DNA of 54,960 nucleotides from Candidatus Heimdallarchaeota archaeon. GTDB taxonomy: Archaea; Asgardarchaeota; Heimdallarchaeia; Hodarchaeales; Hodarchaeaceae. Every line of letters begins with the position of its first letter. Positions within the stretch are counted from its first letter, which is position 1. Position numbers and translations under genes: made by a program. Shown here in pieces: positions 4,022 to 53,188 of this stretch. The stretch lies in the NCBI GenBank assembly GCA_020348965.1, contig CP070760.1, positions 2,624,298-2,679,257 on the forward strand. The letters are read 5' to 3'. The notes under the pieces are model-generated. The model did no database searches. It was not told the DNA's origin and saw nothing but the letters and a program-made list of their open reading frames with translations.

Positions 4022-4026
4022 GTGAA

Positions 4027-4917: not shown

Positions 4918-4937
4918 TGAGGAGTATCTTTGGTTTA

Positions 4938-6689
4938 TTAGGTCTCTTCTGTCAGATTCCCACCACATTCAGGACAAAAAGCCATTCCAACTGCACTTAT
5001 TTCTTCGTAACACTCACTACACACTTTTTTTGCACAAGACATGCATGAGAAACTAATAGTGTTGGATCGAGGAAGTTCACAGACACCACAAAGAAACCCT
5101 ACTTGACGTTTTTTTAGTTGAAACGTCAGATCACGAATATTTATCTTCCCCTGGATCGTTCCATGCAATATATATTGTTCTAGCAATTCAATTGTATCAC
5201 TATCCGAATAGTTCGAAAGTGAAATAATCCTTTTAAGAGGAATATCGGTTTCGACTGTTTGATCAAAAAATTCCGATAATCTTGGATCTAATTGCAAGGT
5301 TTCCAGTGCAATGGGTTCGTATTCCGTCCATCCCATTTTAAGGGGACCTTTTTTACAGAAATAACATTCTTCTGTATCTGTTAAGTTAAAGGAATGAGTG
5401 TAATTAACCTTACAATGTGGACAGAACCTTGGAAGATCGATTATAAAGGCTGATATATTACCGCAAAAAGGACATTCATGTTTACTTCCTGTTGAACGGC
5501 AATTGGAACACATAACCCGCCTGCAATTTTGGCATTCAAAATAAAGATGAGGATCAGTATAATCAGAAGTATCTACTTGACAAAAAATGTTAAAGTGTCT
5601 TACTCCCTTAACTAAAAACGGATTAGAAAATTCTCCAGCAATAAGTCGAAGTCTGAGAAGTTTTGCCAACTTCTGAATTTGATCTAAGAGTTGAAGTGGA
5701 TATAGATTCAGTTTTAATGCTAGACCCTCAATGTCAATTCCATTCTCAAACCAATCATTTAAGGAGGGAGCAATAAAATCTTCCGATGTCAAGGTTCCTT
5801 CTAAGCTCTGGTTTAATACATTCAACAAGTTGATAAAGTCAGCTCTATCTACATCAAGCCGATGAAGCCAGAATTCAATAGGAATGCTTTGGTAAACAAA
5901 GATATCCTTTAGAACTTGGTTAATAATATTCAATGTCAGGTACAGGTATTCATAATTGCTAGAGAAGATGAAGTTGATTTCACTTCGGTGTCTTTCCAGA
6001 AGTTCCAAACATTCGTCTTTAGGAAGTTTGGTTAATTTACTTACATGGATTAGTGCAACTTCTGATTCTAATTGAAAACTTGTATTCATGAAACGAACAA
6101 GAAATTGGACATTTTTCTTCTCATCAGCGGAAGAATCGAAGTTTAAAGAAGTTAAATTATAAATACGTTGTTTAAGTGGATCAATGTAACCGATAAATTG
6201 ATTATTTTGAGCCATGAAGTCCAATATACCTTCCAAGTGGTCTTCAGTCCAATATAGCTGGTTTAAAAGAAATTTCAAATCGATCGCTGTTGTTGTGCCT
6301 AATTTCTGTTTAATTTCTGACATTGCTCCACGTAAAGTGAAGAATTTTCGAGGAATCACATCAAAAAATCCTTCAACATCTTGTACATTCAAGACAATTT
6401 GGCGTTCTAGCAGCTTACCTGGTAAATTGGTAATATCAATTAGATCACATATGTCTACAAAGCCTTTAGTTGCCAATTCGCGGGAGATTAAACGTTGGAG
6501 GAATCTAGTTGGGATAAACAATTCATCATCGACGCTGACAAAACCATATATTTCTTTTGTACCGATTTTAGAACGTAAAAATGTAGCGATTTCATCTGAT
6601 CTCCCTCTTGGAGTCATTTCACGCAATGGGAGCGGCTGCTCTGCTGCTTGGGCTTTCACGAGCCACTGTTGATTCTTTCTCCCAAACAT
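4938..6689 (-). CDS. Large helical/winged-helix-like protein with two Cys-rich zinc modules; C-terminal C4C4 RING-like; candidate E3 ligase
   Basis: C-terminal C-x2-C-x11-C-x2-C-x4-C-x2-C-x11-C-x2-C (nt 4965-5090). Central cluster of five CxxC pairs (approx nt 5345-5537). Sits next to the E1/Ubl/E2 genes. The function is inferred only. Confidence 0.5.
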   Translation of the reverse strand: MFGRKNQQWLVKAQAAEQPLPLREMTPRGRSDEIATFLRSKIGTKEIYGFVSVDDELFIPTRFLQRLISRELATKGFVDICDLIDITNLPGKLLERQIVLNVQDVEGFFDVIPRKFFTLRGAMSEIKQKLGTTTAIDLKFLLNQLYWTEDHLEGILDFMAQNNQFIGYIDPLKQRIYNLTSLNFDSSADEKKNVQFLVRFMNTSFQLESEVALIHVSKLTKLPKDECLELLERHRSEINFIFSSNYEYLYLTLNIINQVLKDIFVYQSIPIEFWLHRLDVDRADFINLLNVLNQSLEGTLTSEDFIAPSLNDWFENGIDIEGLALKLNLYPLQLLDQIQKLAKLLRLRLIAGEFSNPFLVKGVRHFNIFCQVDTSDYTDPHLYFECQNCRRVMCSNCRSTGSKHECPFCGNISAFIIDLPRFCPHCKVNYTHSFNLTDTEECYFCKKGPLKMGWTEYEPIALETLQLDPRLSEFFDQTVETDIPLKRIISLSNYSDSDTIELLEQYILHGTIQGKINIRDLTFQLKKRQVGFLCGVCELPRSNTISFSCMSCAKKVCSECYEEISAVGMAFCPECGGNLTEET

Positions 6690-6873
6690 TGGTTTCGACC
6701 ATAATTCTAACTATTTCTTAACTGAAAGTTCTAAAAGTTCTGCATCTTCAGCTGATAAATTATCAATGGCATTTAACAATTATTGACGAGTTCGTGTTAA
6801 ACTTATTAAAGTGAGTGTTATTAACTATTATGAAAGAGTAAAAGGTCAATCAAAAACTAGAGGAAAATGATCA

Positions 6874-7191
6874 ATGAGTCACCAAAACATTAAGTGTTCA
6901 AAATGCGGCTATATTCCACGAGATCAACCTGTTTCTGGGGCTTGGTATTGCCCTAAATGTGGAAAGCGTATGACAATTGGGTCTTCTCGTCCTAAAACAA
7001 CCCGAAAATTCTATCGAAAACCTGTTACCGTTCAGAAATCACGAGATCAAGTCACAAGTCAGATTTATAGGAAGTTAGCTGTTGATAAACCAACAGATCT
7101 CGGTTTAAAAGAATCTTACATAAATCCAAAGGTTGATCCAATCTTTCCTAAGCGTAGAGATAAAATGCGATTATTCTATAAAAAGGATTAA
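6874..7191 (+). CDS. Small zinc-ribbon protein with a basic tail, function unknown
   Basis: CSKCG-x16-CPKCG ribbon at the N-terminus, then a Lys/Arg-rich tail. GAGGA Shine-Dalgarno upstream of the ATG. Confidence 0.5.
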   Translation: MSHQNIKCSKCGYIPRDQPVSGAWYCPKCGKRMTIGSSRPKTTRKFYRKPVTVQKSRDQVTSQIYRKLAVDKPTDLGLKESYINPKVDPIFPKRRDKMRLFYKKD

Positions 7192-7229
7192 AGTCTCACT
7201 AAGTAATATTGTACTAAAAGGGAGATTAC

Positions 7230-8459
7230 CTACTTCTGGAATTTAATTTGCAATCGAATTTCCTCATCACCAACCAATGAGCTTAAAGTTATCCGATCAC
7301 CATCCGAGAGAAAGTCTGCTATGATTCCATCTTCAGGGAGAAGTTTATTGCCAAGAAATCCAACAGTATCTTTACTTTTCTTAGGTTGAGTTTTCTCAAA
7401 TAAAGTCTTGAATTTTGAGGATGGATCAACCTCTACTTCAAAAAATGTTTGAGAATCAATTGTGGGTTGACCACAAACAAGACAATTAGGATCAGGAACC
7501 ATCTCAAAAGTGTTTATTGACCCAGTCAAGGCTGAATAAATAAAAAGCGAAGGGATTCTAAATCTGTGAGTATCAATCAAGAAATCTAGTCTTTTCATTT
7601 CGTTTTTTTTAAAAGACGTTCTCTTTTCTAGAAAAAGAGCTTTCAGGATTTCTTGGGATTGTATTCCACTGGTTACTGCATTAACAGTTATTAAACTAGG
7701 TACACGGAAAAGTATTAGTTGCAGGAGTTCTTTTTCGTCGAAATTACTATAGTTATATTTTTTAGCATATTTATTAGCAAAATTCGTGAGTATGGAAAGA
7801 TCCTCTTGAGAGGTTTCTAATGGTTCGCGATCATATGACGTGTTGAAGTCGTAGAGTGCTTTCCATGCACAATGTTCTCTTTGGCGGGGAGCCCCCACGA
7901 GTGTACATGGAGCTGTCAATATACGAGTTTCGTCCGGAGGAGCCGGATTATCACAGGCAAGACAGGCTGTTTTTCTAGGATTAATATATTGTACTTGGCC
8001 AAAAAAACCATCTGTAGCAGAATCGATCAGCGGTTTATTCAATTCAACCGCCATCGCATTAATAAATTGCCTTGCCAAGAAATTATCAACACACCCAGCA
8101 ATGATATCTACCTCCCGAAAAGCTCTTTGAGGGATTCTTTGAAGAATATCAGGAAAACTCTCAATTTTAATATCGGGATTATATTGTTCCTGAATTCTCA
8201 TTCTTGCGATTTCTGACTTTTTCTCGCCAACATCTTCTTCTCTGAATAACATTTGACGATTTAAGTTTGAAAACTCAATGGTGTCCGCGTCGACCAAAAT
8301 TAATTTCCCAGTGCCTAAAAGAGCTAAATTTTTTGCTACCTCGCTGCCTGTCCCCCCAACTCCTGCAATTAAAATTTGACTGTCTTCAATAATTTGCTGA
8401 TCCCAAAGAGACAATCTTTTTTGACGGTCATATTTAGAAGAAGGAAGATCTTGTGACAT
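7230..8459 (-). CDS. Ubiquitin-activating enzyme E1-like (ThiF/MoeB/UBA fold with C-terminal ubiquitin-fold-like domain)
   Basis: Nucleotide loop GVGGTGSEVAKNLALLG and DADTIEFSNLNRQ. Eukaryote-like catalytic-Cys segment TAPCTLVGAPRQREHCAWKA. Zn pairs CLAC and CLVC. Confidence 0.85.
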   Translation of the reverse strand: MSQDLPSSKYDRQKRLSLWDQQIIEDSQILIAGVGGTGSEVAKNLALLGTGKLILVDADTIEFSNLNRQMLFREEDVGEKKSEIARMRIQEQYNPDIKIESFPDILQRIPQRAFREVDIIAGCVDNFLARQFINAMAVELNKPLIDSATDGFFGQVQYINPRKTACLACDNPAPPDETRILTAPCTLVGAPRQREHCAWKALYDFNTSYDREPLETSQEDLSILTNFANKYAKKYNYSNFDEKELLQLILFRVPSLITVNAVTSGIQSQEILKALFLEKRTSFKKNEMKRLDFLIDTHRFRIPSLFIYSALTGSINTFEMVPDPNCLVCGQPTIDSQTFFEVEVDPSSKFKTLFEKTQPKKSKDTVGFLGNKLLPEDGIIADFLSDGDRITLSSLVGDEEIRLQIKFQK

Positions 8460-9802: not shown

Positions 9803-10411
9803 ATGGATATTTCTTTTAAAAACTTGGTTAAATACCTTCTTAAATATATTGTGGATGGTACCAACGTGCAGGATTTACACTCCAGACGGCTAAGAGAAGA
9901 GTTTAAACGGATGTTGAAAACCTATCCGCCAAAAACAAGCTCTATTAAGTGGGTCATTGTAAATAACGACCTACATAATTATAAAGCAACAATTAAAGGG
10001 AAATCAAATACTCCATATGAAAAAGGTGAATGGGAAATCACAGTCGATTTACCACCTGAATATCCCTTTCGTCCTCCCATTATCAATTTCCTAACTCCCA
10101 TCTGGCATCCGAATATCTCTGTTGGTCAAACACGATGGAAGTGGGGGAGTAACGTATGTTTAAGCCTTGTGAATTGGAATAATATGGGGAAATCAGGTGG
10201 TTGGAAAGAAACGATAACTTTGCCAAGTGTATTTGAACACATTGAAATGATGTTGGATGTTTATCGTGCAACAGGGGATGTTGACTTTCCAGAATATCTC
10301 GTGGATCCGAATGATCCATTTAATCCTGAAGCAGGGGAACAGATGAGGAAAAAATTTGATAACTTCTGGCAACAGGCTGTCGAATGGACCGAGAAACACG
10401 CTATTGATTAA
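9803..10411 (+). CDS. Ubiquitin-conjugating enzyme E2 (UBC fold)
   Basis: RRLREEFKRM helix 1, PYEKGEWEITVDLPPEYPFRPP, HPN motif (WHPNIS) and catalytic Cys in NVCLSL. Confidence 0.85.
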   Translation: MDISFKNLVKYLLKYIVDGTNVQDLHSRRLREEFKRMLKTYPPKTSSIKWVIVNNDLHNYKATIKGKSNTPYEKGEWEITVDLPPEYPFRPPIINFLTPIWHPNISVGQTRWKWGSNVCLSLVNWNNMGKSGGWKETITLPSVFEHIEMMLDVYRATGDVDFPEYLVDPNDPFNPEAGEQMRKKFDNFWQQAVEWTEKHAID

Positions 10412-10439
10412 TCATCTGAATTAGCCATGGGAACTTTAA

Positions 10440-11024
10440 ATGTCTAAAGAAAGAAAACAAGAAGAACTATCTAAAGAAGAAACCGGGTCCGAGATCAAAG
10501 ATAACATGAATCCTCAAATAGAAAATCTGGATGAACCTGAAGATTCCACAATTTCTTTGACTTCTAAAGTGAAATCTGTGACCATTTTAGGAAATTTACT
10601 TGATGACATGACTGAATATGCCCACAAAGCAATGCCTAGGGAAGCCATTGGTCTATTGGGCGGAACGGAATTTCGTCCTTCAGAATTAAAAGTGTCAAAA
10701 ATACTGTTTGTAACCGAGGGTGATGAAGTTTCTGTATCCTTCTCGGATGAGGATTTCAACTCATTCCAAGAAATACTCGAAGGCGATCTGTATTGTTGTG
10801 GGTGGTGGCATTCTCATCCTGGATATGGACTATTTCTCTCACAAACGGATATAACAACTCAGATTTACTCCTTTCAGCTTCACAATGATATTTCCGTCGC
10901 CCTTGTGGTTGAACCTACGTCAATCGGTGCTAATGGGCGTGCTGCTTTCCAGTTTTATCAAGTTGTTGGTGAAGAGGGGAAAACTCCTTTTACATACAAA
11001 GAGATTGCTAGTTATATTCAATAG
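10440..11024 (+). CDS. JAB1/MPN/JAMM metalloisopeptidase (Rpn11-like deubiquitinase)
   Basis: Upstream Glu (PREAIGLLGG) and JAMM motif HSHPGYGLFLSQTD. Lies 28 nt downstream of the E2 gene. Confidence 0.85.
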   Translation: MSKERKQEELSKEETGSEIKDNMNPQIENLDEPEDSTISLTSKVKSVTILGNLLDDMTEYAHKAMPREAIGLLGGTEFRPSELKVSKILFVTEGDEVSVSFSDEDFNSFQEILEGDLYCCGWWHSHPGYGLFLSQTDITTQIYSFQLHNDISVALVVEPTSIGANGRAAFQFYQVVGEEGKTPFTYKEIASYIQ

Positions 11025-12041: not shown

Positions 12042-12605
12042 TTACATAAGGTCAAGTTTCTCTGTAACCCTCTGACGTAACCACTCAAGTCCTTCTTCGA
12101 CATTGAAACCCGTTTTAGCAGAGGTAGGAACAATCGCATAAGAGTGAGTAGTGACTTTATGAAGATTAAGGGCTCGAGCCACCTCTCCTGCAGAAGCTGC
12201 ATTTTCTAGATCCTGTTTATTAGCAAGGACTAGAATGGGAATATTTTCAACTCGATCATTGTCGAGGACATATTTCCAAAGCTCTGCTTGGGCTTCTGGA
12301 AATCGGTAATTATCAGCTGAGTCGACAACATATACAATTCCCATAGAACCAGCCATATAACTTTCCCAAAGAGATTCACGGAAGGCTTCTTGGCCTCCTA
12401 TGTCCCAAGAAATGAATCTAACATTTCCTGAGCTAAATTCATCAACATTCATACCCAATGTTCGGAAAGTACTACCATCAAATTCTCCAGAGGTTATCCT
12501 TCTTACAATAGTGGTTTTTCCAGCGTGGTCGAGACCCAACCACGCAATCTTCACTGTTAATTTCTCTTTGGCAATCTTTGCACGGAGCTTTGAAAGAAAA
12601 CTCAT
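12042..12605 (-). CDS. Arf/Arl-family small GTPase
   Basis: P-loop GLDHAGKTT, Arf-type switch II WDIGGQEAFR, NKQDL, SAKTG. N-terminal amphipathic segment MSFLSKLRAKIAK. Confidence 0.85.
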   Translation of the reverse strand: MSFLSKLRAKIAKEKLTVKIAWLGLDHAGKTTIVRRITSGEFDGSTFRTLGMNVDEFSSGNVRFISWDIGGQEAFRESLWESYMAGSMGIVYVVDSADNYRFPEAQAELWKYVLDNDRVENIPILVLANKQDLENAASAGEVARALNLHKVTTHSYAIVPTSAKTGFNVEEGLEWLRQRVTEKLDLM

Positions 12606-12614
12606 TTAGAGCAC

Positions 12615-13166
12615 CTATACGTTTTTCCGTGACATTTGTCTACGGAACTTGTCACTCATCCACTGCCAAGGTTCATCGACACCTTCACCAGTCAGTGCTG
12701 AACAAGGATAAACTGCAAAGGATCTAGGTCTTGCAGCCATCTCTTTTTCAAGGCCTAATGTGTGAATGATGCTTTCAAGAGACATGGCTTCTTCTAAATC
12801 TTGCTTGTTTGCCAAAAAAAGAAAAGCAGAGTCTTCTGGCGACCATTGAATAACATTTTTTAGCCATTTTCCAGCTTTTTCTACCTTAGATCTATCTGCT
12901 GAGTCAAAAACGAATACAATTCCTGAAGCTTTTGATACAAATGGTTCCCATAGGCTGGTGGGGTATGTTGGTTGTCCTCCTAAATCTGCTGCCATTACTT
13001 CAATGTCGCCTATCTTTAGGGTTTCAATATTCATCCCCATCGTTGGTACGGTCTCTAGATTTTCATCTCCCTTAAGTCTTTTTACCAAAGTTGTCTTTCC
13101 TGCATTTGCTAGGCCAACAAAAGCCATTTGATTTTCTATCTCACGTCCGAATAGTTTTGTAGGCAT
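12615..13166 (-). CDS. Arf/Arl-like small GTPase (divergent paralog)
   Basis: GLANAGKTT, DLGGQ, NKQDL, CSALTG. Lies 9 nt upstream of the other Arf-like gene. Confidence 0.8.
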   Translation of the reverse strand: MPTKLFGREIENQMAFVGLANAGKTTLVKRLKGDENLETVPTMGMNIETLKIGDIEVMAADLGGQPTYPTSLWEPFVSKASGIVFVFDSADRSKVEKAGKWLKNVIQWSPEDSAFLFLANKQDLEEAMSLESIIHTLGLEKEMAARPRSFAVYPCSALTGEGVDEPWQWMSDKFRRQMSRKNV

Positions 13167-17557: not shown

Positions 17558-18259
17558 TTAAAATTGTTTGTGCCCGAACTCCAAAATATCTAGAATTTGG
17601 GAAACCCCTCTTGGTAAGCTGAATCGCTGGTTGTCCCAATCAGCAATTATGAGACGTCTCCAAGAGGCGAATTGAAGCTGGGAATAAACTTCTTCTTGGG
17701 GTTGTTGAATGTTCTTAGCAATCTCAATGAGTTCTCCATTCGATTTTTTTACAGCTAAAAGAATGTGATAGTATTCCTTAATCGCGTTAAGCACAATTAA
17801 GCCCAAGGCATGCTCAATTTTTTCCCCAGTTCTCGCTGATGTCCCTACTACTGAAATTTTATCCTTATTTTTCCCTAGAACTGCTTCTGCTACTTCCTTG
17901 GGGCTTTTCGCACCTCGAATGTCCTGTTTGTTTGCACAGAGGACAAGAGGAACACCTGGCAGGATATCATAAACTTCTTCCAGGAGTCTTTCAGCCTCTT
18001 CGAAAGAGGCAATATTTACAGAATCAACAATAAAAAGAATCCCATCGGCTCCTTTACTGAGAATTTTTCGGATAACTTCAAATCGTTGGAGCCCCGGTGT
18101 ACCAAATAGGAAGATTTCAACTCCATAAATTTGTGTTCGGCAGTGATCTAAAGCAACAGTTGTTCCGCCATAATCGATAGAGATTGCAGAGTCACTGCAT
18201 ATCATGTGAACAGTTGTTGTTTTGCCAGAATTGTAAGGTCCTAATAAAACTATCTTCAT
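17558..18259 (-). CDS. Small GTPase of the archaeal MglA-like/COG2229 type with a C-terminal extension of about 75 aa
   Basis: GPYNSGKTT, FGTPGLQRF, NKQD, TSARTG. The tail has a helix-rich, winged-helix-like pattern. Confidence 0.7.
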   Translation of the reverse strand: MKIVLLGPYNSGKTTTVHMICSDSAISIDYGGTTVALDHCRTQIYGVEIFLFGTPGLQRFEVIRKILSKGADGILFIVDSVNIASFEEAERLLEEVYDILPGVPLVLCANKQDIRGAKSPKEVAEAVLGKNKDKISVVGTSARTGEKIEHALGLIVLNAIKEYYHILLAVKKSNGELIEIAKNIQQPQEEVYSQLQFASWRRLIIADWDNQRFSLPRGVSQILDILEFGHKQF

Positions 18260-42701: not shown

Positions 42702-43327
42702 TCTTCTTCTGGTTGTAACTCCATACATGCTGGACAAAGCGTATAACCATTAGTTGTTTTGAGGTTATCTGAATAATTGCTGCAATCATCACAAAAACCT
42801 TGAAACTTGATAGAAGATCGGTTTGCTTCGTTCGGGGGCATTTTTTTGATGGTTTCAATGAGAAGACGTTCTCTATGAATTCGGAGGAGCCCTGGAGCAA
42901 ATTTTAGTATATCATTTGTTGAAACAATTCCCAACGGTTGTGAAAGGTCACTCCCTTCAACAACTAAAATTCTTTCAATATTTTCTTGAGCCATTATGAG
43001 CATTGTATTCTCTAGGGTTTCATCTTCAGAGACAAATGTAACTGGTTTACTCATGACATCATCAACTAAAACGATTCCAGGATCTAATGCACGACTCACG
43101 ACACGATTAATTATGTCTCCTTTTGTTATTATTCCTTCAATTTCTTTATTTTTAATTATTATTGAACCAACCTGATTCTTTAACATCAACTTTGCCGCTT
43201 CTGTTACAGGACGATTAGATGGCATTGATATTATTTCTTTACTTTGTTTAGAGACAATCGCCATATTAGTCTTGAGTAGATTCCCTATTAAAACTTCTTT
43301 TCCGTTATCAATCAACCCTAGATTCAC
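42674..43327 (-). CDS. CBS-domain pair protein with C-terminal zinc ribbon
   Basis: Two CBS repeats, then CDDC...CPAC. Convergent 28-nt overlap with the NFACT gene. Confidence 0.7.
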   Translation of the reverse strand: MNLGLIDNGKEVLIGNLLKTNMAIVSKQSKEIISMPSNRPVTEAAKLMLKNQVGSIIIKNKEIEGIITKGDIINRVVSRALDPGIVLVDDVMSKPVTFVSEDETLENTMLIMAQENIERILVVEGSDLSQPLGIVSTNDILKFAPGLLRIHRERLLIETIKKMPPNEANRSSIKFQGFCDDCSNYSDNLKTTNGYTLCPACMELQPEEDQSSEDDFM

Positions 43328-43462
43328 CTGAAGAAATTAATTCAAATTTCGTTCTCTGTTCTTCGTGAAGATGTTTTAATCTAAGTTCTATCTTCTTTTC
43401 AACTAAAAAAACCTTTGCATTAGTGATAGTTGAATTTTCTTCTTTCTGGAAGAAGACATTGT

Positions 43463-46069
43463 TTATGCAAGTTTTGTTGGACGTGGCCCCTTGTCAAATA
43501 ATAATCGTTTATTTAGTTCAATAAGTTCAACCCAGGATTGGCAATACTCCGAGATATCGGAATTATATTTATCTTTCAACTGGTTAATGATCTGTAAATA
43601 TCTTAAAACCCATCCTTTTGATAATGTCAGTCCTAGTGTTTGACGGTGACATACAGGACAATTCGTGAGAGGTACACGTCTAAATGTTGTGTTACAGGTG
43701 TTACAGCGTACAGGTTGAAGGAAAAAACGATTTATTGAAGAGGTAATTTTTGGGAGGAAATCATTTTCCAATATATTATCAACAAACTCCCCTTCCTTTA
43801 CTCCACGAATTCGGCCGAGAACTCGCAATTCTGTCTCGATTTTAGATACTATCTTGCTTTCACGGAAACGGTTTTCAAAGCTATAACGAGTGATATTATC
43901 AATTGTATGTAAGAAGGATAAAGAGGGTGTTAGATATGACAAATTATAAGATAATAATTCTTCTACTAGCGGATTATCGTTTAGAGTCTGATAAAACAGA
44001 AGATTCATTGATATTGAACTGTAATTAGCAAAAAAAGAAAGTTCTTCCCATTTGTCAGTAAAATTAATTATAGAAGGAACATCCATTCCCCCTCCTCTTG
44101 CTGCTGGAATGAATTCAGATGAAAAATTGAGAAAAACATCTAAAAGGAGTGTTATTGAATCAATGTCTCCATTACAATTTCGAGTTTTTAACAGATGCCA
44201 GAGCGGATGGGCATAAGCAACATTATTTTCAGTAAAACCAATAATCCTACCCAAAATAGCAACCATTGAAAATGGTGAAAGTCCCACTATCAAAGAACCA
44301 ATAAGATTATTCAGTGATTTTTTTCCATAATAGGGAGAAAGGCCGTATAACAGATCCAATTCATCATCAATGAACTTGGATAATTTAATCAGATATTTTC
44401 CTGCTGTTTTACTAATTATTGTATCATATGGATAGATTTCTATCAATTGATCTTCTTGAGTTAAATCTTCTCCAAAAATATCGTGAGAATAACCAAGGCG
44501 GCGAAGTTTCTTAAGAGAGGTTTGAATTTCCTTAGGAGTAAAATGGGTTAAAGGCGCGTTAGTTAGATCAAAACGAGTAGTCCCATCTTTGTACACAAAA
44601 ATCTCATGCTTCGCCCGTAATATTCCTTTTATAAGATGTTCTGGAATACGGTTCTTACTATTTAAAAAGGAAACGCCTTTAATCTTCTTCAAATCCAGAG
44701 GACCAGTATTTTGGAACCCAGATTCTAGTAAACCTGAAATATCAATAGGTTTATTTCTTGCCGAGTATGCATATTGTCCACATTCGCTACATTCTCTTGT
44801 TTCAGAAATGTGGCCCTTCTTACAGACATATTTTTGTACTGTTTTTTGATGACACTTAGGACAATAAGAAACAAAGATGAAATTATCACATGAAGAACAG
44901 TACCTTTCTGAAATTTGAATATTAACTGTCCTTTCTTTTTTAGCTTTTAAAAGATCTTTCTGAGGTCCCCCATAAGATCCAATAGGAAAAAGAACATGAG
45001 CTGGAGGATTTATGTGGCGAGCTTCGGCTTTTTCTACTCGAATGATCTTTAGACCCATTCGTCGATGGCATAATGATCTTACAGGTATTTTTGTAAGTTC
45101 ATGAATGATTTCTTCAATTTGCATTGATGATTTCGATAGTAGATGAGTTAATTGATCTTCTTTTCCTCTCAAACTGAATGTAAAGGGTTGAAATCGTATT
45201 GCTTTAACTTCATTATTGACAATAGAAAATGGAACCCCTAGCTGTCTTAAAATGTTCTTCAAGGCTTCATTATTTGGTAGTACGTCATCTTTCGTGTCGT
45301 TTATCTTTTGGATTAGTCTTATTAAATCACTTATGGCAATTTCGTTCCAATTAAACGAATAATACGGATGAATGGGTACGGCAGTTATGCTACATAAAGC
45401 GAGAGCTGTTTCAGGAGAAGGATGATAAAGGGTTGGTTCTTCTAATATTTGTGTAAGGTCTTTAAAAGAAATATCAATATTTTTAGCAAGACTCTCAAGT
45501 GTTCCTAATTTTAGAAGGGCGGCATATTTTGTTTCTTGGACCCACCATTCCTCTGTCCATCCTGATAGTTCAATAGTCTCAGTTGTAGGAATATCATCTG
45601 GTGAAAGTAAAATATCTCCCATTTCCCAAATCTGAACTATTTGATTTTCTAATTCATATAATCTTGTTAATGATTCTATTCTTTCCGTTGATCCGTCTCT
45701 TAGTTCTACGAAAGGACCTGTTAACGTGGAAACAGGAAAAATTGTGATAGGTCGATCCATAACGTCTATTTTTATACTAGTACCTGGAGAAAGCATTTCC
45801 GAAATATACATTGTGGCAGGATGCATACCTGCAGCACCTAATCCAGTATTACGTGAAGAACCATATCTTAATCGAAATCCTCCTGGTTTTCTTGATTTTG
45901 ATAGCAGGGGTTGTGTTCCACGCACTTCCATTGAACCAAATTCATGTTTTTCTCTTATGACCCTTTCAAAAGGAGGTTTTAACCAATCCCATTCGGGAAT
46001 TCCTGAAATCAATCGTCTATGCGAGATTGAATTTATGTTTTCTACTACTCTTTCGAGAGCTACACACAT
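43463..46069 (-). CDS. polC: DNA polymerase D large subunit DP2, C-terminal 868-aa portion
   Basis: KPGGFRLRYGSSR, VLFPIGSYGG, DP2 Zn fingers (CSSC..CPKC, CSECG, CNTC..CPVC), AHPLWHLLKTRNCNGDIDSITLLLDVFLNFS...RGGGMD. Confidence 0.85.
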   Translation of the reverse strand: MCVALERVVENINSISHRRLISGIPEWDWLKPPFERVIREKHEFGSMEVRGTQPLLSKSRKPGGFRLRYGSSRNTGLGAAGMHPATMYISEMLSPGTSIKIDVMDRPITIFPVSTLTGPFVELRDGSTERIESLTRLYELENQIVQIWEMGDILLSPDDIPTTETIELSGWTEEWWVQETKYAALLKLGTLESLAKNIDISFKDLTQILEEPTLYHPSPETALALCSITAVPIHPYYSFNWNEIAISDLIRLIQKINDTKDDVLPNNEALKNILRQLGVPFSIVNNEVKAIRFQPFTFSLRGKEDQLTHLLSKSSMQIEEIIHELTKIPVRSLCHRRMGLKIIRVEKAEARHINPPAHVLFPIGSYGGPQKDLLKAKKERTVNIQISERYCSSCDNFIFVSYCPKCHQKTVQKYVCKKGHISETRECSECGQYAYSARNKPIDISGLLESGFQNTGPLDLKKIKGVSFLNSKNRIPEHLIKGILRAKHEIFVYKDGTTRFDLTNAPLTHFTPKEIQTSLKKLRRLGYSHDIFGEDLTQEDQLIEIYPYDTIISKTAGKYLIKLSKFIDDELDLLYGLSPYYGKKSLNNLIGSLIVGLSPFSMVAILGRIIGFTENNVAYAHPLWHLLKTRNCNGDIDSITLLLDVFLNFSSEFIPAARGGGMDVPSIINFTDKWEELSFFANYSSISMNLLFYQTLNDNPLVEELLSYNLSYLTPSLSFLHTIDNITRYSFENRFRESKIVSKIETELRVLGRIRGVKEGEFVDNILENDFLPKITSSINRFFLQPVRCNTCNTTFRRVPLTNCPVCHRQTLGLTLSKGWVLRYLQIINQLKDKYNSDISEYCQSWVELIELNKRLLFDKGPRPTKLA

Positions 46070-46780
46070 TCACATTCGGAGCTGGTTTGTAATATTAGGT
46101 AAATTTCGGAATTTTTTTACTTCTATTCGTTCATAAGCTTCCCCAGAAATTTCTACTCCAATATTTTGAACAAGATATCTTATTAAATCCTTCCGTAAGT
46201 CCTGAAGTCGATCGTTCAATGTAAGAAAAATCTCGATTTCCTCAACATATCTGTTAATTAGCTCTGGGGAAGGACTAAAGCGATTTAGGTGAAGTATATG
46301 TCGAATATAATCAGCAATTAGGATGACAAGACCAATAGTTTCTCCTGTAGAATAACGAATAGTGTTGGAAAAGAAAATGGTCAAATGATTAGATTTAGCT
46401 CCAATAGAGATCTTTGGAATACTTTCATGTGGAACAGAAATCAATCCTTGACTGATAATCACTAAAGTGCTATGTAAGGCAAGTAATATCAAGTCCTCAC
46501 GAGATTTCTTAATAAATCTTCCATTGACAATCTGTTTGGCGATATCTGCAGCTAGAAGAAGCGGGCTGTCATGGCGAGCAAGATTTTGAGGGAGGTATTC
46601 CTCTAATCCAGGAATATTTAGAATAGCAGCAATCTTAGACTTGGAAGAATAAGTTAGTTTTGTCTCAATAGATGAGCTAGGATCTAACTTAAAAGCCCGA
46701 GCTTGCGATGCAATTTTAAATTGAGTTTCAAGATCTCTTTTTAAATTTTGGATATATTCTTGAAACTCACTTTTGATCAT
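46070..46780 (-). CDS. polC: DNA polymerase D large subunit DP2, N-terminal 236-aa portion ending at an in-frame TGA
   Basis: KLDPSSSIE, the motif region aligned to GPIRSxGGT (NTIRYSTGET), RFSPSPELINRYVEEIEIF, ITNQLR. Same frame as 43463-46069, separated by a single TGA (46070-46072). Confidence 0.8.
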   Translation of the reverse strand: MIKSEFQEYIQNLKRDLETQFKIASQARAFKLDPSSSIETKLTYSSKSKIAAILNIPGLEEYLPQNLARHDSPLLLAADIAKQIVNGRFIKKSREDLILLALHSTLVIISQGLISVPHESIPKISIGAKSNHLTIFFSNTIRYSTGETIGLVILIADYIRHILHLNRFSPSPELINRYVEEIEIFLTLNDRLQDLRKDLIRYLVQNIGVEISGEAYERIEVKKFRNLPNITNQLRM

Positions 46781-46786
46781 TTTGCT

Positions 46787-47503
46787 TCACGATAGAACAT
46801 GAACCCCGTTCATTAATGTGACATTGAGAATTCCAAGATCGTCGAGATACGATTCATCCTCAAAATAATAAACGCCAGTTTGTTCTCGGTTAACATAAGG
46901 AACGAGGGTAGTACTGCCATTTAAAATGTAGATTGATGAAACCTGAACATGTTCAAACGTATCTCCAGTAGATTGTTGCACAATGATCTTATTATCTCGG
47001 ATTTCAACACGAGCGGTAAAATTTATGGAAAAGGATTCATCTAATGAGATTGAGGACGAAATTGCACTCATATGTAAGGTGAATTCTGCATAGATTTGAC
47101 TAATATATACGGCACCGTCAAAAGTGTTTTCATAAGGGGGTTTATTTGCTGAAAGAAGGAAACTATTTGTGTCAAATTGAAAGTTTGTAGTTACCCCTCT
47201 TACAGAGTTAAGGACTTCTATAGATGCCATAAATTCCTCTATTTCAGTAAGAACATTGGCAGGAGGTGTGATGGCCCCATTTTTTGAATATTCAGCCAAT
47301 ACTAGTTCCAAATATAGCTGAAGTTCGCGTTTTGAATCTAAGTAAGGTTCTCGTAATGTTTCACATTCAACTTCAATTCTTTCACCCCCAAGATTGATTA
47401 AAATTGCTGCCATCGCTACAATGTAGACCGCTATTAACATCGTGGCTAAAATAAACATTTGTCCTTGATGTCTTTTTGAAGATATGAATCCTAGAAACCT
47501 CAT
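46787..47503 (-). CDS. Pilin-like protein with class III (type IV prepilin-like) signal
   Basis: KRHQGQ then hydrophobic MFILATMLIAVYIVAMAAILI. Its ATG overlaps the upstream stop as ATGA. Confidence 0.5.
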   Translation of the reverse strand: MRFLGFISSKRHQGQMFILATMLIAVYIVAMAAILINLGGERIEVECETLREPYLDSKRELQLYLELVLAEYSKNGAITPPANVLTEIEEFMASIEVLNSVRGVTTNFQFDTNSFLLSANKPPYENTFDGAVYISQIYAEFTLHMSAISSSISLDESFSINFTARVEIRDNKIIVQQSTGDTFEHVQVSSIYILNGSTTLVPYVNREQTGVYYFEDESYLDDLGILNVTLMNGVHVLS

Positions 47504-48012
47504 GAGAATTTCTCCCATAAATATAATTGAACTAAGTATTGTGAGTGAAACTGTCCAAAAGTTGAAGAGGAGAATGATCCCAAGTGATAATTTGCTACAA
47601 TCCCCTCTCCTCCTTGTTGTAATGATGCGATATGTCCTGAGGAACCAAGGAGAGTGAAATAGATCTGATCAGGGGTTCCATTATGCACTTCGTGGGCAAT
47701 CAACGTATAATCAATATTATTTGGGAGGATTGAAGAGATAAAATCATCTAATTGGTCTTGATATGTAGAAAATTCAGCATAATATTTGCCATTTCCATGA
47801 AGATAGACTACAGGTCGTAGTAGGCCTGTTTCGTCTGCTGCCAGTAGAATATCTGTCGCTGTTTGATCCAAGCTCATAAGGTTAGCATAGGGTGTTCTTG
47901 TTTGACTCGCTGCGTTTATTAAGAGGAGAGCTAAGACTAACATTAAGGCTACAGAAATAAGTGTTTCTGCGATTTGTAGTTGTCCTCTGTGAGTATTCTT
48001 TTGCCTTTGCAT
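47500..48012 (-). CDS. Pilin-like protein with class III signal peptide
   Basis: MQRQKNTHRGQ / LQIAETLISVALMLVLALLLI matches the archaeal [KR]GQ prepilin cleavage context. Confidence 0.55.
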   Translation of the reverse strand: MQRQKNTHRGQLQIAETLISVALMLVLALLLINAASQTRTPYANLMSLDQTATDILLAADETGLLRPVVYLHGNGKYYAEFSTYQDQLDDFISSILPNNIDYTLIAHEVHNGTPDQIYFTLLGSSGHIASLQQGGEGIVANYHLGSFSSSTFGQFHSQYLVQLYLWEKFS

Positions 48013-48016
48013 TCTT

Positions 48017-49186
48017 CTAGCTACTCCACATGGTTACTTGGCACCTCATCAAAGTCCCTCTGACAACGACGGGATAAGTCTTTGATACCATAGATTTTAC
48101 CCTTTCACCAGGATCTAGTGATCCAAACACTTGGTAGAATATCCCACTGGTCAGATCACGATCCAAAATTGCTGGGTAAGATCCCACTCCTACTTTGTAG
48201 GAATTGCCAAACCTCGCAATACTAAAAAAAGCAACGAGGCCCTCATTTGGAATCGTGAAGGAAATATTCCCCCTATCGCTGGTTCCAAGGTCAACTGTTT
48301 GAAAAGAATAATCTGAAGTAGTATTTTGGTAGATGATAGAGAGAAAGTGGTTATCTAGAGACTCAACCACTCCAAAAATATCTGAAAGTAAAAGAGTTGA
48401 GGAATTAGTACCTCCTCCCCAGATTGTTGTATCTGAAGAGGCTCCGATAACAATTAGTTCATTCGGTAAACTCCCCCAGTTCATGCTCCAAAGTTCTCCC
48501 TTTCTCACAATGACAAAAATAAAGTGTTCTGCGTCAGGATCATCGATATGAGGTATTTCATAAATTAAAGAAGTGCTTCCTCTTGAGTCCGTCGGACTGG
48601 TACCTGCAAGAGTCACGGCTCCATAAGTTAGATCAATCACGAAAAAATGAACTTGAGCATTGAAAATAGGAGAATTATGGGGATTCATAACATCAACCGT
48701 AACAATATTTGATGTAAAATCGAATGATTGAACAGTCACATTAATCTCTAAACAAGGAAAGAAGGCCAATTGAAATTCATAATCACTTTCTAAATTAATT
48801 TTTTTTGTCAGCGTGTCATAATCATATGTCTCATACCCAGATATACTCGAAATAGAGTAAGAGGTTCCAGTAACGATACGAGCCATCTTCGATGCGTCTA
48901 GAGTAAAAACTGTCTCAGATTTCGAATCTGAAAGTCCAAAGGTTGAAGGTAGTTCCTGAAGATACCCCCAATTAATGTCACCCTCTTCCAACAGTAGTTG
49001 GCGTCCAAAGATGTCTAATTTCTCATAGGTTAATTCTCCTACTATTCCTGTCTGAATTCCTGATTGGACGTTGATGATGATTAAAATCAACTGTGTCATC
49101 ATGATTATAAAGAGAAAAAGACTCACAATAAAGTCAACTGCTCTAATCTGTCCACGTCGTCGTTTTTTGAGTCTTGAAAAAACCAT
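48017..49186 (-). CDS. Large pilin-like/pilus-associated protein with class III signal peptide
   Basis: KKRRRGQ / IRAVDFIVSLFLFIIMM, followed by a beta-rich region. Confidence 0.55.
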   Translation of the reverse strand: MVFSRLKKRRRGQIRAVDFIVSLFLFIIMMTQLILIIINVQSGIQTGIVGELTYEKLDIFGRQLLLEEGDINWGYLQELPSTFGLSDSKSETVFTLDASKMARIVTGTSYSISSISGYETYDYDTLTKKINLESDYEFQLAFFPCLEINVTVQSFDFTSNIVTVDVMNPHNSPIFNAQVHFFVIDLTYGAVTLAGTSPTDSRGSTSLIYEIPHIDDPDAEHFIFVIVRKGELWSMNWGSLPNELIVIGASSDTTIWGGGTNSSTLLLSDIFGVVESLDNHFLSIIYQNTTSDYSFQTVDLGTSDRGNISFTIPNEGLVAFFSIARFGNSYKVGVGSYPAILDRDLTSGIFYQVFGSLDPGERVKSMVSKTYPVVVRGTLMRCQVTMWSS

Positions 49187-49228
49187 CTATCACACATTCA
49201 CATGATTAGAATTTACTGTTTAAGCTCA

Positions 49229-49684
49229 CTAAGATGATACTTCATCACTTGATGAACCAACATTAGCAACCTCGAATTGTACAATAATTTCTTCTAGACG
49301 ATCTTTTAATTCTAGCATTGTTGTTTCTAATTCCGTTAATTGGAGTCCCCTTTCTAATAAAGTCGTGGCTTGAGCAATTAATTCGTCAGCTTTCTGTGTC
49401 TTTTCGCTCTTTAAACCTGAAGTTAATTCAGCTAACGAATTAAGTTTTTTCATTAAGTCCGAAACACTATCTTCTATTGTAGAAATTCGAGTTTCAAGAG
49501 GTGCTAAATCAACCTCAACGGGACCAGTTTTAGGAGCAGTTGCAGAACTAATAGCTGGAGTTATGGGAACCGAACCTCCTGAGCCCATACCCTGAACGAG
49601 TAAAAACTCCATATTTGTCAATTTGTCCTCTAAAGCAGAAACTTTCTCTATTAATTCCATCAACATTTTTTCTTCTTTTCCCAT
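49229..49684 (-). CDS. Coiled-coil protein of the pilus operon
   Basis: Trimmed to ATG 49684, preceded by GGAGG. Heptad-rich ends flank a Pro/Ser/Ala linker. Confidence 0.45.
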   Translation of the reverse strand: MGKEEKMLMELIEKVSALEDKLTNMEFLLVQGMGSGGSVPITPAISSATAPKTGPVEVDLAPLETRISTIEDSVSDLMKKLNSLAELTSGLKSEKTQKADELIAQATTLLERGLQLTELETTMLELKDRLEEIIVQFEVANVGSSSDEVSS

Positions 49685-49706
49685 AAATATTAACCTCCAT
49701 AGATTA

Positions 49707-50723
49707 TCAGATATTTGGTACAATAGGAAAAACAAAGATTGTTATTTTGAAAAATACGTAACAAATCATTAATAAGATGCAGGAGTGGCGCAAACCAATT
49801 TTGGCGTCACCTTCACCCATTTTACCCGCAATAAGACCAGCAAAGACAGCTTCAATCATCATCATATGGAAAAATACTAATTGCAAGCCAGCTACATTGA
49901 ATGGTAAACCTGATTGAGGTTCTTGATCTTGCCTTACAGCATCTACAATTTGTACTGCTAATCTCTGAAAGAAAGTAAGGAGTAAGATAATTATAACCAA
50001 AGAAAATATGATGAAGGAGGCATAGATAATCCAAGTATACGGCTTCATTGCTGTAAGACGTTCCCTTTTCAGGCCTAAAATTTCTGAAACGTGTGTATGA
50101 GCAGATTCAAACACATCTTCAATAGCTCCACCTGATCGTTCTGCTTCTAGAATTAACAACGACGTTCTCTTCATCAGTGGAGTATCCGCTACTTCCGTTA
50201 AACTCCGAAGAGTCTTACTAAAAGGGATTCCCCAACTGATCTTTGCTGCCATCTTCTTTAATTCAGGTGTTAACGCCCCATATTGATGCTTTGAAGCCTC
50301 CAAGATAGCTCTCGGTAATGGAAGTCCAGTCTTCTGAGCATCAGAAATCTCACGTAACAAAGATGGAATGTGGTCCTCAATATTATCACGCCATTTTCGA
50401 TCAGAATTGTAAGCCCAAGCTGGGAGAATTAATAATGCAAGAACAGTTACTAAAGTCATATCTAAAATGTCGAAAAAACCAAGAAGAGGATTAATATCAG
50501 AAAGAGAGCTCACATCATTTACAGAGTAAAGAAATGGATGCAGTTTATCCTCGGTAAGTTTCTCTATGTCTTCTCTAATGACCTCAATGTCACCAGTTTT
50601 TGATTCTATATGAGTAAGAGTTGGAATATAGAATACCAGTAATGCGATAATTAAAGCTGAGAGAAATAATATTGACGACAAAATCCACATAAGTTGTTCT
50701 CGTTTTTGTGTTAACTTTCCCAA
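49707..50723 (-). CDS. Type II secretion system F-domain membrane protein (second half of a split FlaJ/PilC/TadC-like platform)
   Basis: Cytoplasmic helical T2SSF-like domain flanked by TM helices. Adjacent to the ATPase and the other half. Confidence 0.65.
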   Translation of the reverse strand: MGKLTQKREQLMWILSSILFLSALIIALLVFYIPTLTHIESKTGDIEVIREDIEKLTEDKLHPFLYSVNDVSSLSDINPLLGFFDILDMTLVTVLALLILPAWAYNSDRKWRDNIEDHIPSLLREISDAQKTGLPLPRAILEASKHQYGALTPELKKMAAKISWGIPFSKTLRSLTEVADTPLMKRTSLLILEAERSGGAIEDVFESAHTHVSEILGLKRERLTAMKPYTWIIYASFIIFSLVIIILLLTFFQRLAVQIVDAVRQDQEPQSGLPFNVAGLQLVFFHMMMIEAVFAGLIAGKMGEGDAKIGLRHSCILLMICYVFFKITIFVFPIVPNI

Positions 50724-50745
50724 AATCTTGGAACCTCCATAACTT

Positions 50746-51666
50746 TTAGATTTCTCTCGAGATGGTTGAGATAAGTAAATTCATGATTACGAGTAGAATA
50801 GGCATTATGAAGTAAGCAAGCGCTAACATTAGAATAGTAGCCGCCTCAACTGCATCTTTAGCAATAACTGCTACAATTGCTAGAATAACTACAAAGAATA
50901 ATGGAGCGACAACACCTACAATCATAAAAATTTCTGCCAGAACACCTAATTGGGCTATAAATTCTTTTGTTTCTTCTTCTTTTAGTTTCATTAAAGCTTT
51001 TGATTCAGCAGACATGAAAAATGTAAGGTCTCCTCCACTAGTTATAGTAGCGGACATACCGTCTAAGAATTTGGAGAATCGTTCAGAGGGAGACCGTGTA
51101 CTGGCAGTTCGTAATGCTTTTAAAATATCATATCCAAAAATCTCAATGTCCCGAGTAATTCGCTTGCTCTCATTAGATATTTCTGGTGCAACAGAGGCTT
51201 CTCCTGCCAGTGAATAGAATAATCTATCAGGTGGAACTCCTGAACTTGACATGGCAGAGAGATAAGATGCTGTTGATGGTAAGCCTGCCTCAATCAATAT
51301 TTTGCGATCAGTTGCTTTCATTTGGGGCCAATATAAAAATGGTAGATATGTTAAGATGCCACATATTACTCCAACGAATACCCCCACCATTACAGCCATT
51401 GGTACTTGGTTTTCAGAAATATTTGGGTCATTCTGAAGGATGAGAGCAACAGTTCCTGTTGTTATAACAAAAGAAAGCACACCAACAAGTATGGAACAAA
51501 AAATTGCACTTCCTAAGTAAGCTCGGACTGAAATATCCATACCAGCTTTTTTCAGACTTGTATTAAGCCTTTCAAAGCGGCCTTTTTCGATCCAAGGTTC
51601 TAAGAACCTACCAAATCTGAGATAACCTACCCTTCGAATAGCTTTACTCACGAATAAACGCTCCAA
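50746..51666 (-). CDS. Type II secretion system F-domain membrane protein (first half of a split FlaJ/PilC/TadB-like platform)
   Basis: LKKAGMDISVRAYLG start typical of FlaJ/TadB, plus TM helices. Lies 10 nt downstream of the ATPase. Confidence 0.65.
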   Translation of the reverse strand: MERLFVSKAIRRVGYLRFGRFLEPWIEKGRFERLNTSLKKAGMDISVRAYLGSAIFCSILVGVLSFVITTGTVALILQNDPNISENQVPMAVMVGVFVGVICGILTYLPFLYWPQMKATDRKILIEAGLPSTASYLSAMSSSGVPPDRLFYSLAGEASVAPEISNESKRITRDIEIFGYDILKALRTASTRSPSERFSKFLDGMSATITSGGDLTFFMSAESKALMKLKEEETKEFIAQLGVLAEIFMIVGVVAPLFFVVILAIVAVIAKDAVEAATILMLALAYFIMPILLVIMNLLISTISREI

Positions 51667-51676
51667 GTGATTTTGT

Positions 51677-53188
51677 TTAAATTGACTTCAATTCGCGCTT
51701 TGCACGATCTACAGTCTCAAGAGCATTTTGATAATAACTAGAAATAACTTCAGAAACTTGGGTGAAATGAGCTAACTTCTTTTTTACCATCCATCGCAAA
51801 ATGGTTTTCCTTCGTTCGAGTTCGTCAAAAACCTGAGCTTCTGTCAATCCTTGCGACTCTTGAATCCCCTCTAATGCATAAGAACGCCCATAATTAATGA
51901 ATGCATCCTCACGGGCATTCCAACCGAAAACTTTGTTGGTTATTAGCTCAGTAGTCACAGGATCAATTCCTACAATTTCCGTACATTCAATCACTCGTCG
52001 TACTTGTTTATCACCTCTACGAATTTTTCTTTCGACAAGAATGATGTTCAATGTTTGGATTAGAGTTCGTGGAATGTTCATTGGTTCATTTTCTAAGCGT
52101 CTGATCGTGCCAGTGACACTGTCTCCATGGATTGTACCCATTCCTGTATGTCCTGTGGCCATAGCTTGAAAGAGGTTATACGCCTCTGAACCTCTAACTT
52201 CTCCAACAAATAGATAATCAGGTCTTTGACGAAGTGCTGCCCTTAGAAGGTCATACATCGAAACTTCTCCTCTCCGGGATCCGTCAGCTTCACGTCCGCC
52301 ATAACCCTCCCGTGCGACTGCAGGGATCCAATTCTCATGGGGGAGATTAAGTTCTGCTGTGTCTTCAATGGAAACGATTTTCATCCCAGGCCGAATGAAC
52401 ATAGCTAAACTATTCAGTAACGATGTCTTACCCGCTGCAGTGCCTCCTGCAATAACAATAGAATTTCTATTTTCTAAAACATACCATAAGAATGCTGATA
52501 AATCTTCGTCTATTGTGTTAAAGATAACCATGTCTGTAATAGTTAAAGGATCAGATTTAAACTTACGAATTGTAAATGTGCTCCCTCGTTGAGTCACCTC
52601 CCTGCCATAAGTCAGCTGAAGGCGACTACCATCTGGTAAAGCGGCATCAAGCAAGGGACGCGCCACACTAATGTGACGTCCTGATCGCTGAGCTAACTTT
52701 ATAATAAAGGCATCTAACGCATCTTCCTCCTCGAATTTTATGTTTGTTTGGATGCTCTCAAATTTTCGATGCCAGATATAGACAGGAATCCCTACACCAT
52801 CACAAGAAATGTCTTCAACATTGTGATCCTTTAACATGGCGTCTATAGGTCCAAATCCAACAAAATCGCGAGCAATATGGTAATTAATCTTATCAAAAGT
52901 TTTTTCATCTAGTTTTAACCCGTAGTTCTTGGCAATTCCGATTACTTTCGACCGAAGGTAATCACGTGCTATTTCAGGTGTTTTTAAAACATTAAAATCA
53001 ACATCTAGTTCTTCTTCGAGAATATTCTTAATCATATCCAATATGTCTTTCTCTTTTGTGCTTAAAGGAACTTCAACTACAGTATATTTAGTTTGTTTTG
53101 ACTCTGGATCGGTTGCTACCAATGCGTAACTGAATGGGGGGATTAATGGATATGTTTCCCGAATTAAACTGCTGCTCGGTTCGGACAT
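51677..53188 (-). CDS. FlaI/PilB/VirB11-family secretion ATPase
   Basis: Walker A GGTAAGKTSLLNSL, Walker B/Asp box (IVSIEDTAEL), His box (GHTGMGTIHG). Confidence 0.85.
   Translation of the reverse strand: MSEPSSSLIRETYPLIPPFSYALVATDPESKQTKYTVVEVPLSTKEKDILDMIKNILEEELDVDFNVLKTPEIARDYLRSKVIGIAKNYGLKLDEKTFDKINYHIARDFVGFGPIDAMLKDHNVEDISCDGVGIPVYIWHRKFESIQTNIKFEEEDALDAFIIKLAQRSGRHISVARPLLDAALPDGSRLQLTYGREVTQRGSTFTIRKFKSDPLTITDMVIFNTIDEDLSAFLWYVLENRNSIVIAGGTAAGKTSLLNSLAMFIRPGMKIVSIEDTAELNLPHENWIPAVAREGYGGREADGSRRGEVSMYDLLRAALRQRPDYLFVGEVRGSEAYNLFQAMATGHTGMGTIHGDSVTGTIRRLENEPMNIPRTLIQTLNIILVERKIRRGDKQVRRVIECTEIVGIDPVTTELITNKVFGWNAREDAFINYGRSYALEGIQESQGLTEAQVFDELERRKTILRWMVKKKLAHFTQVSEVISSYYQNALETVDRAKRELKSI

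Follow-up and report, generated by a model that had tools for sequence, protein, structure and literature searches.

A single in-frame TGA interrupts the PolD large-subunit gene

Why a gene of the replication machinery should carry a stop codon in its own frame is the question raised by a stretch of 54,960 bases from a Candidatus Heimdallarchaeota archaeon (contig CP070760.1 of assembly GCA_020348965.1), called the window in what follows, to which all coordinates given here refer. The gene encodes the large subunit (DP2) of the family-D DNA polymerase (PolD), and an original prediction, made from the letters of the window, had placed four answers side by side: a truly split DP2 produced by termination and reinitiation, readthrough or recoding of the stop, a pseudogene made by a slippage duplication or a point mutation, and a sequencing error. 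Our analysis makes it very probable that the gene is interrupted by one G>T change of very recent date, seen only in this genome, which turned the GGA codon of Gly237 into TGA in a DP2 that is otherwise intact and under purifying selection. The change is of a familiar kind: it is an error of the consensus, or else a nonsense mutation or a split gene in the making.

On the minus strand the junction reads ACA AAC CAG CTC CGA ATG TGA ATG TGT GTA GCT (T N Q L R M stop M C V A), the part from CAG onwards occupying positions 46083-46057; the original prediction was exact here, both in the reading R M stop M C V and in its coordinates. The two open reading frames (ORFs) on either side of the stop (Table 1) share one frame and amount to 1106 codons when both stops are counted. 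Fused across the TGA they give 236+1+868 = 1105 codon positions, which is the length of the closest relative and bears out the proposal that the two together form a normal-length DP2.

The fused frame has the content expected of a complete gene. The N-terminal fragment matches Pfam PolC_DP2_N with E=3.8e-39, the DP2 domains PF03833, PF24844 and PF24846 are all present in one colinear frame, and the fused protein aligns over residues 4-1095 with the DP2 structures of Pyrococcus abyssi and Thermococcus kodakarensis (E ~1e-174). In the P. abyssi protein (6hms_B), TNQLRGGA aligns with TNQLRM-stop-M, which confirms that the stop stands opposite the second glycine of the TNQLRGG motif, G244 in that protein. 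In a six-frame scan for long open segments split by one stop, DP2 was the sole gene of the 55-kb window with an in-frame stop, the other ORF neighbours that share a frame being separate genes by Pfam.

Relatives carry a glycine codon at the stop site

For the protein search with the C-terminal fragment, the 120 best matches were examined and the closest relative was judged among those. This is P0006 (locus L003), a protein of exactly 1105 amino acids with 88% identity to the window DP2, which has been assembled independently from three sequencing runs and is contained in the samples SRR34261173-77. About 45 of the 120 matches are proteins of Heimdallarchaeia/Hodarchaeales, all of them uninterrupted DP2 chains of 1105-1124 amino acids with three domains per chain, and the N-terminal fragment found three relatives without a break at the site, where they read RMGMCVALE or RMGLCVALE. 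At the level of codons, the position of the stop is occupied by GGA, GGG or GGT in 14 related loci. In the closest relative it is GGA, within ATG GGA ATG TGC, so that GGA and TGA are indeed one substitution apart, as had been proposed; at this codon the window departs from that relative in one base, a G>T at position 46072 of the coding strand, and no codon has been added.

The glycine is conserved far outside the clade. A motif scan of 119 homologues found it at the stop position in all 95 with a TNxLRxG motif (95/95), the site reading RMGMC within the clade and RGGA elsewhere, and an alignment of 76 DP2s drawn from many archaeal phyla has only about 62 invariant columns, G237 and R235 being two of them. 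The DP2-invariant residues are all kept in the window DP2 except Gly237.

The same alignments decide the fate of the slippage duplication, according to which an extra AATGTG of 6 nucleotides (nt) broke the gene. The perfect tandem hexamer that had suggested it, AATGTGAATGTG, does span the stop; however, RM-stop-MC aligns column for column with RMGMC in all relatives, and the fused length of 1105 equals that of the closest relative. As no codon has been added, the duplication is ruled out, and of the earlier option of a slippage duplication or point mutation only the second half is still a candidate.

A split inherited from an ancestor was looked for in several collections. The same break point occurs in none of the about 45 clade proteins and in none of 31 related loci obtained by tblastn, two of which are interrupted, each elsewhere and differently. 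Neither the 150 best library representatives nor the 120 best matches of the C-terminal fragment included a fragment that ends or starts at the break, and the N-terminal fragment, run exhaustively with HMMER against 1.84 billion representatives, retrieved only short fragments with scattered ends and no recurrent split. Two short matches, P0023 and P0037, were considered as split DP2s and rejected, since they are merely cut by contig ends. With a glycine codon (GGA, GGG or GGT) in every relative examined, which is the observation that the original prediction had named as telling against its own reading, the stop is either an artefact or a change specific to the strain, and not a feature of the lineage. 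As judged from these sequence comparisons, it is neither an inherited split, nor a duplication, nor a recoding site.

A second copy from the same species was not found: none is on record for the window protein, a search of genome contigs gave relatives at 80% identity at most, and a protein-guided metagenome scan gave relatives at 79% at most. A degenerate DNA pattern had 0 matches in a collection of metagenome contigs that missed locus L001 as well and is evidently without such contigs.

Some of the related loci have irregularities of their own. L001 (JGI 3300041079), a 72% relative on a short 3.3-kb contig, carries an in-frame TAG at DP2 codon 314 (2655-2657), after which the frame continues; the surroundings read NTG-stop-NAAGIHP, against NTGLGAAGMHP in the window, and the TAG could be an error, a variant or, which is unlikely, pyrrolysine. 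In L030 (GCA_054389935.1, a metagenome-assembled genome of Hodarchaeales; 2670-5887), DP2 is called as ORFs of 452 and 628 amino acids in different frames with a 28-nt overlap, and about 57 codons are missing between the EEWW and HP.YSFNWNEI motifs, by a frameshift/deletion or by misassembly. The DP2 of L014 (a metagenome-assembled genome of Hadarchaeota, ~6292-7682) contains a 1.39-kb insertion of in-frame size near query residues 868-881, and this size is compatible with an intein.

Table 1. Parts of the interrupted DP2 gene in the window
Feature	Position	Strand	Evidence
PolD large-subunit (DP2) gene, complete, with a single interruption	43463..46780	-	Structure matches; Pfam N, central and catalytic domains; gap-free colinearity with the 1105-aa P0006/L003
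N-terminal fragment ORF, 236 aa + TGA; most of the KH-like template-guiding domain, ends ...TNQLRM	46070..46780	-	Pfam PolC_DP2_N
C-terminal fragment ORF, 868 aa; rest of the KH-like/anchor region, two double-psi beta-barrels, Zn modules, DP1-binding C-terminal domain	43463..46069	-	Pfam PolC_DP2_central + PolC_DP2_cat
In-frame TGA at the invariant Gly237 codon; changed base (G>T, coding strand) 46072	46070..46072	-	Codon comparison with relatives
ATG (Met238) abutting the stop; conserved residue (RMGMC) that predates the stop; candidate reinitiation codon	46067..46069	-	Homologue alignment
Perfect tandem hexamer AATGTG-AATGTG, produced by the G>T change from ancestral AATGGG-AATGTG	46065..46076	-	Codon comparison

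Apart from one base the gene looks functional

The state of the rest of the gene was assessed against L003, with which the window DP2 shares 87.7% DNA identity at a synonymous divergence (dS) of about 0.47. The ratio of nonsynonymous to synonymous divergence (dN/dS) is 0.086 for the N-terminal and 0.142 for the C-terminal fragment, in a comparison that, over a dS of 0.5, is blind to a very recent relaxation of selection. When the amino-acid changes were polarised with six outgroups, 27 were specific to the window lineage and 38 to P0006. The window deviates at two of 167 clade-invariant columns (the stop and R819G), and the other 38 sequences range from 0 to 8. No further lesion was found in DP2, and the neighbour genes are syntenic with L003 and intact (13/13), most of them having exactly the length of the orthologue and the remaining ones differing by a few residues to about 19, which is consistent with uncertain start codons. 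A long-standing pseudogene is ruled out by the dN/dS of 0.09-0.14 together with the relative-rate test and by the single lesion. Apart from one base, then, the DP2 gene looks fully functional and under purifying selection as far as its sequence tells; the change is very recent, tolerated, or not real.

G>T accounts for 2 of 74 lineage-specific nucleotide changes, one of the two probably being the stop-creating change, and a G>T damage signature was rejected because the spectrum has no excess of this type.

The second deviating column, residue 819 (~44323-44325, minus strand), has Gly where the 38 other DP2s of the clade all have the Arg of PYYR; apart from the stop, the window DP2 departs from no further clade-invariant column.

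The substitution perfects a tandem hexamer

Changes that perfect a repeat are few in this gene, 28 among 9,945 possible single-base substitutions, and exactly 1 of the 529 possible stop-creating substitutions perfects a tandem hexamer; it is the observed one. That the sole repeat-perfecting nonsense change is the one that occurred points to a misalignment between the two AATGxG copies. It may have arisen in the cell, as DNA was being synthesised, or later, when reads were aligned and the consensus was built. Taken on its own as a 12-mer, with one mismatch allowed, AATGTGAATGTG is unremarkable, at least two matches being present in 10 of 100 shuffles.

The position of the stop is also uncommon in two other respects: a stop directly before an ATG would arise at 14/529 (2.6%) of the possible nonsense sites, and a stop between identical codons at 8/529. 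The local ATG-GGA-ATG explains both the ATG after the stop and the identical flanking codons, and these coincidences are therefore not simply evidence for selection of a restart codon.

A 13-mer that spans the stop, ATGTGAATGTGTG (46063-46075, minus strand), oddly recurs 3.1 kb upstream at 49191-49203 on the same strand. The second copy lies in a 27-nt spacer just before the ATG of a 389-amino-acid gene of a pilus-like operon (see below). The repeat had no match in 100 shuffles, an observation made post hoc, and in L003 the two sites share only GAATGTG, the likeness having arisen only in this genome. Ectopic templating between the two sites would be a speculation.

TGA terminates other genes of the window

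Programmed recoding of the UGA, as selenocysteine (Sec) or in a genetic code with UGA=Gly, was weighed next to the codon comparisons. Genetic code 25 reads UGA as Gly, the residue displaced in this gene, and some Asgard lineages use Sec (PMC9723677, PMC11227280). Like the Asgard selenoprotein genes of these two studies, DP2 has an in-frame UGA in an otherwise intact Asgard gene; unlike them, it has Gly in its homologues, no element resembling a selenocysteine insertion sequence (SECIS), and a clade, Heimdall/Hodarchaeales, that is reported to be without the Sec trait (PMC11227280). The Asgard selenoproteome survey lists seven selenoprotein families, none of them a polymerase, and DP2 is not included (PMC11227280).

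Within the window, stops of 51 ORFs are distributed as 28 TAA, 12 TGA (the DP2 break included) and 11 TAG. The 11 other genes that end in TGA have products which reach the ends of Pfam profiles or match orthologue lengths. They are GINS51 (921-923), S27e (1106-1108) and Nop10 (2109-2111), already cited in the original prediction as proof that TGA is a real terminator here, and 8 further genes, among which are GatD (446 amino acids), NFACT (687 amino acids) and the 243-amino-acid pilin-like gene directly upstream of DP2. No other in-frame TGA splits a gene in the window.

Evidence for a selenocysteine apparatus was equally absent within the 55 kb. None of the homologues has Cys at the position of the stop. 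A SECIS-like element, for which a search downstream of the final stop (43463-43465) had been suggested, was not found: the 3' untranslated region (43320-43470, minus strand) folds no more stably than shuffled sequence (z = -0.01), and no Rfam family was matched in the window, none even at E<=1 around DP2. ARAGORN found no tRNA in the window, tRNA-Sec included, and there was no Pfam match there for SelB, SelD, PSTK or SepSecS of the Sec machinery. Given termination at TGA elsewhere, the missing SECIS-like structure and the lack of a second interrupted gene, both Sec insertion and a UGA=Gly code are rejected, and recoding of any programmed kind is extremely improbable.

A real allele or a consensus error

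The remaining readings differ in whether the T is present in the organism. With low certainty, we lean slightly towards a real T. A consensus or base-calling error, with GGA in the DNA of the organism and DP2 a normal single chain of 1105 amino acids, is a serious contender to which we grant somewhat under an even chance.

PolD is essential in archaea where this has been tested, and a stop at an invariant residue of such a gene, where every relative has Gly, in a DP2 without any sign of relaxed selection, speaks for an error. Misalignment is conceivable in the quasi-repeat, which has GGG and TGTGTGT as its neighbours, and the sporadic and unrelated DP2 disruptions of metagenome-derived relatives (the TAG of L001, the frameshift of L030) indicate a background of lesions. 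Several observations oppose an error. The sequence sits on a 3.16-Mb contig, and the 55-kb window is otherwise without broken genes and without frameshifts, its 13 syntenic neighbours matching the orthologue lengths as described above. G>T is not in excess in the lineage-specific spectrum. In repeats, a consensus usually errs by insertion or deletion, substitutions being the rarer type of error in a long-read consensus. Finally, an error blind to context would adjoin an ATG only 2.6% of the time, and it would rarely fall on the one site that both perfects the repeat and abuts an ATG.

The case resembles an ordinary nonsense mutation, a young pseudogene or a metagenome assembly error in being a single-base stop absent from relatives. 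It is unlike them in that DP2 shows no decay, in that the stop stands directly before a conserved Met codon, and in that the gene is essential in model archaea.

Possible consequences of a real stop

If the T is real, it would be the population consensus in a gene that has proved essential in those archaea where this was tested, and our analysis suggests termination-reinitiation as the most plausible route to expression. Ribosomes would terminate at the UGA and reinitiate on the abutting AUG, and the products of 236 and 868 amino acids, minus Gly237, would reassemble into an active PolD; a minor full-length product might come from readthrough of the UGA or from a +6 hop of the peptidyl-tRNA-Met from AUG to AUG. 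We regard a two-piece DP2 of this kind as a tentative and rather doubtful reading.

The arrangement at the junction is favourable to it, the gap between UGA and AUG being 0 nt on the same strand, which is the case at only 2.6% of the possible nonsense sites. Both fragments are under purifying selection with respect to the closest relative, and a second DP2 from the 3.16-Mb contig was absent among the 120 best matches. That genes lying very close together can be coupled has been demonstrated in an archaeon (PMC10666635): in Haloferax volcanii and Escherichia coli, coupling works only if the genes overlap or are separated by very short gaps, a native pair at +1 nt works, and coupling is lost by about 20 nt (PMC10666635, PMC6728339). 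The coupled pairs of Huber et al. (2019, 2023; PMC6728339, PMC10666635) likewise have a stop and the next start on one mRNA with almost no gap, and they are enriched among subunits of one complex. They differ from what is predicted for DP2 in that theirs are conserved gene boundaries, mostly with -4/-1 overlaps, whereas the DP2 break would be a unique mutation inside a domain with a 0-nt gap.

Four-base stop/start overlaps are present in the same window on the plus strand, namely GTGA at 920-923 (GINS51/S27e) and ATGA at 2108-2111 (Nop10 and the next gene, whose product is unassigned), and such overlaps are the classic arrangement of translationally coupled pairs.

Polymerases whose catalytic chain is encoded by two adjacent ORFs exist: PolB of Methanothermobacter is encoded in two genes, and splits of gp43 exist in T4-like phages. 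Pfu PolB split by termination-reinitiation is fully active and behaves like the wild type (PMC3061061). The two ORFs of DP2 could reassemble in the same way, yet the known examples belong to family B and have their splits in surface loops, for instance at the finger tip, in a form that is conserved in a lineage or was selected in the laboratory, while the DP2 break is unique and lies at a strand/helix junction. No split of a family-D DP2 turned up in our literature searches.

The position of the cut is the first of several points that weigh against a working split. It falls inside a folded domain and not in a linker: in the AlphaFold model of P0006 (pLDDT 90.8; numbering as in the fused window DP2), strand 233-235 is followed by helix 236-247, and residue 237 is in the first turn of this helix, directly past the strand. 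The KH-like domain, which in P. abyssi comprises residues 85-283, orients the template strand and has a GG motif at G151/G152 (PMC6355029); the stop lies within this domain, not at that motif. In addition, a glycine that is invariant across all DP2s would be lost, the 25 nt before the AUG contain no Shine-Dalgarno-like motif (the native DP2 start is without one too), and it may be through the mutable quasi-repeat, and not through selection, that an AUG adjoins the stop. The break is common to no relative, and no fragments with this end stood among the 150 and 120 best matches.

A real stop might otherwise be bypassed to a full-length product, by near-cognate readthrough of the UGA or by a +6 hop whose product would be without Gly-Met. 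The stop is flanked by identical codons, as would be true of 8/529 possible nonsense sites, and short hops over a stop between matched codons were reportedly seen in E. coli by Weiss and colleagues in 1987. Matched AUG codons for take-off and landing thus recall these hops and that of T4 gene 60, but the DP2 site has no stimulatory structure, nascent-peptide signal or conservation; its fold is indistinguishable from that of shuffled sequence (z = -0.78). Events of hopping or readthrough usually have an efficiency of about 1%, and their product would have the invariant Gly missing or replaced. We hold bypass to be quite improbable.

The stop could also mark a freshly inactivated pseudogene in an organism that is losing PolD and replicates its genome with a family-B polymerase. 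DP2 has been lost in Baldrarchaeia, in Aenigmatarchaeota and in the eukaryotic stem lineage, and Hodarchaeales are reported to have an extra Pol-epsilon-like PolB (PMC12680538). The gene has a single lesion, a dN/dS of 0.09-0.14 and no acceleration of rate, and this lack of decay argues against an outright loss of PolD. All of the about 45 clade relatives keep a full DP2, and PolD is essential where tested. Loss of the polymerase is accordingly improbable.

Gene neighbourhood

DP2 starts 6 nt past the TGA of a type-IV-pilus/archaellum-like operon (46787-53188, minus strand), which contains a T2SSE ATPase (51677-53188), two T2SSF genes and DUF7261/DUF7262-like small proteins. The arrangement is also present in L003 and, as far as the contigs extend, in L001, L002 and L030. 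It is unusual for the gene of a replicative polymerase to stand at the end of a pilus operon and to have no Shine-Dalgarno motif of its own.

The window further holds a cluster of eukaryotic-signature genes that is typical of Asgard archaea, all intact (3035-4021, 7230-8459, 9803-11024, 12042-13166 and 17558-18259), with an ESCRT-II EAP30/Vps36-like protein, a ThiF-type E1, a UQ_con E2, a JAB deubiquitinase and three Arf-family small GTPases.

Implications

No new principle is involved in either reading of the base. If it is an error, DP2 should be annotated as one protein of 1105 amino acids, and not be counted as "split" or "lost" in surveys of the replisome. It is conceivable, though on balance we doubt it, that in a living Asgard archaeon resembling Hodarchaeales the genome is copied by a PolD whose catalytic subunit consists of two pieces, the outcome of a repeat-templated G>T change; a natural split of a family-D polymerase would then have been seen for the first time, and at the point of its origin. 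A real T would show the birth of a split gene by one mutation at a place where a Met codon already follows, and it would bear on the dispensability of PolD in that archaeal clade to which eukaryotes, in whose lineage DP2 was lost, are closest.

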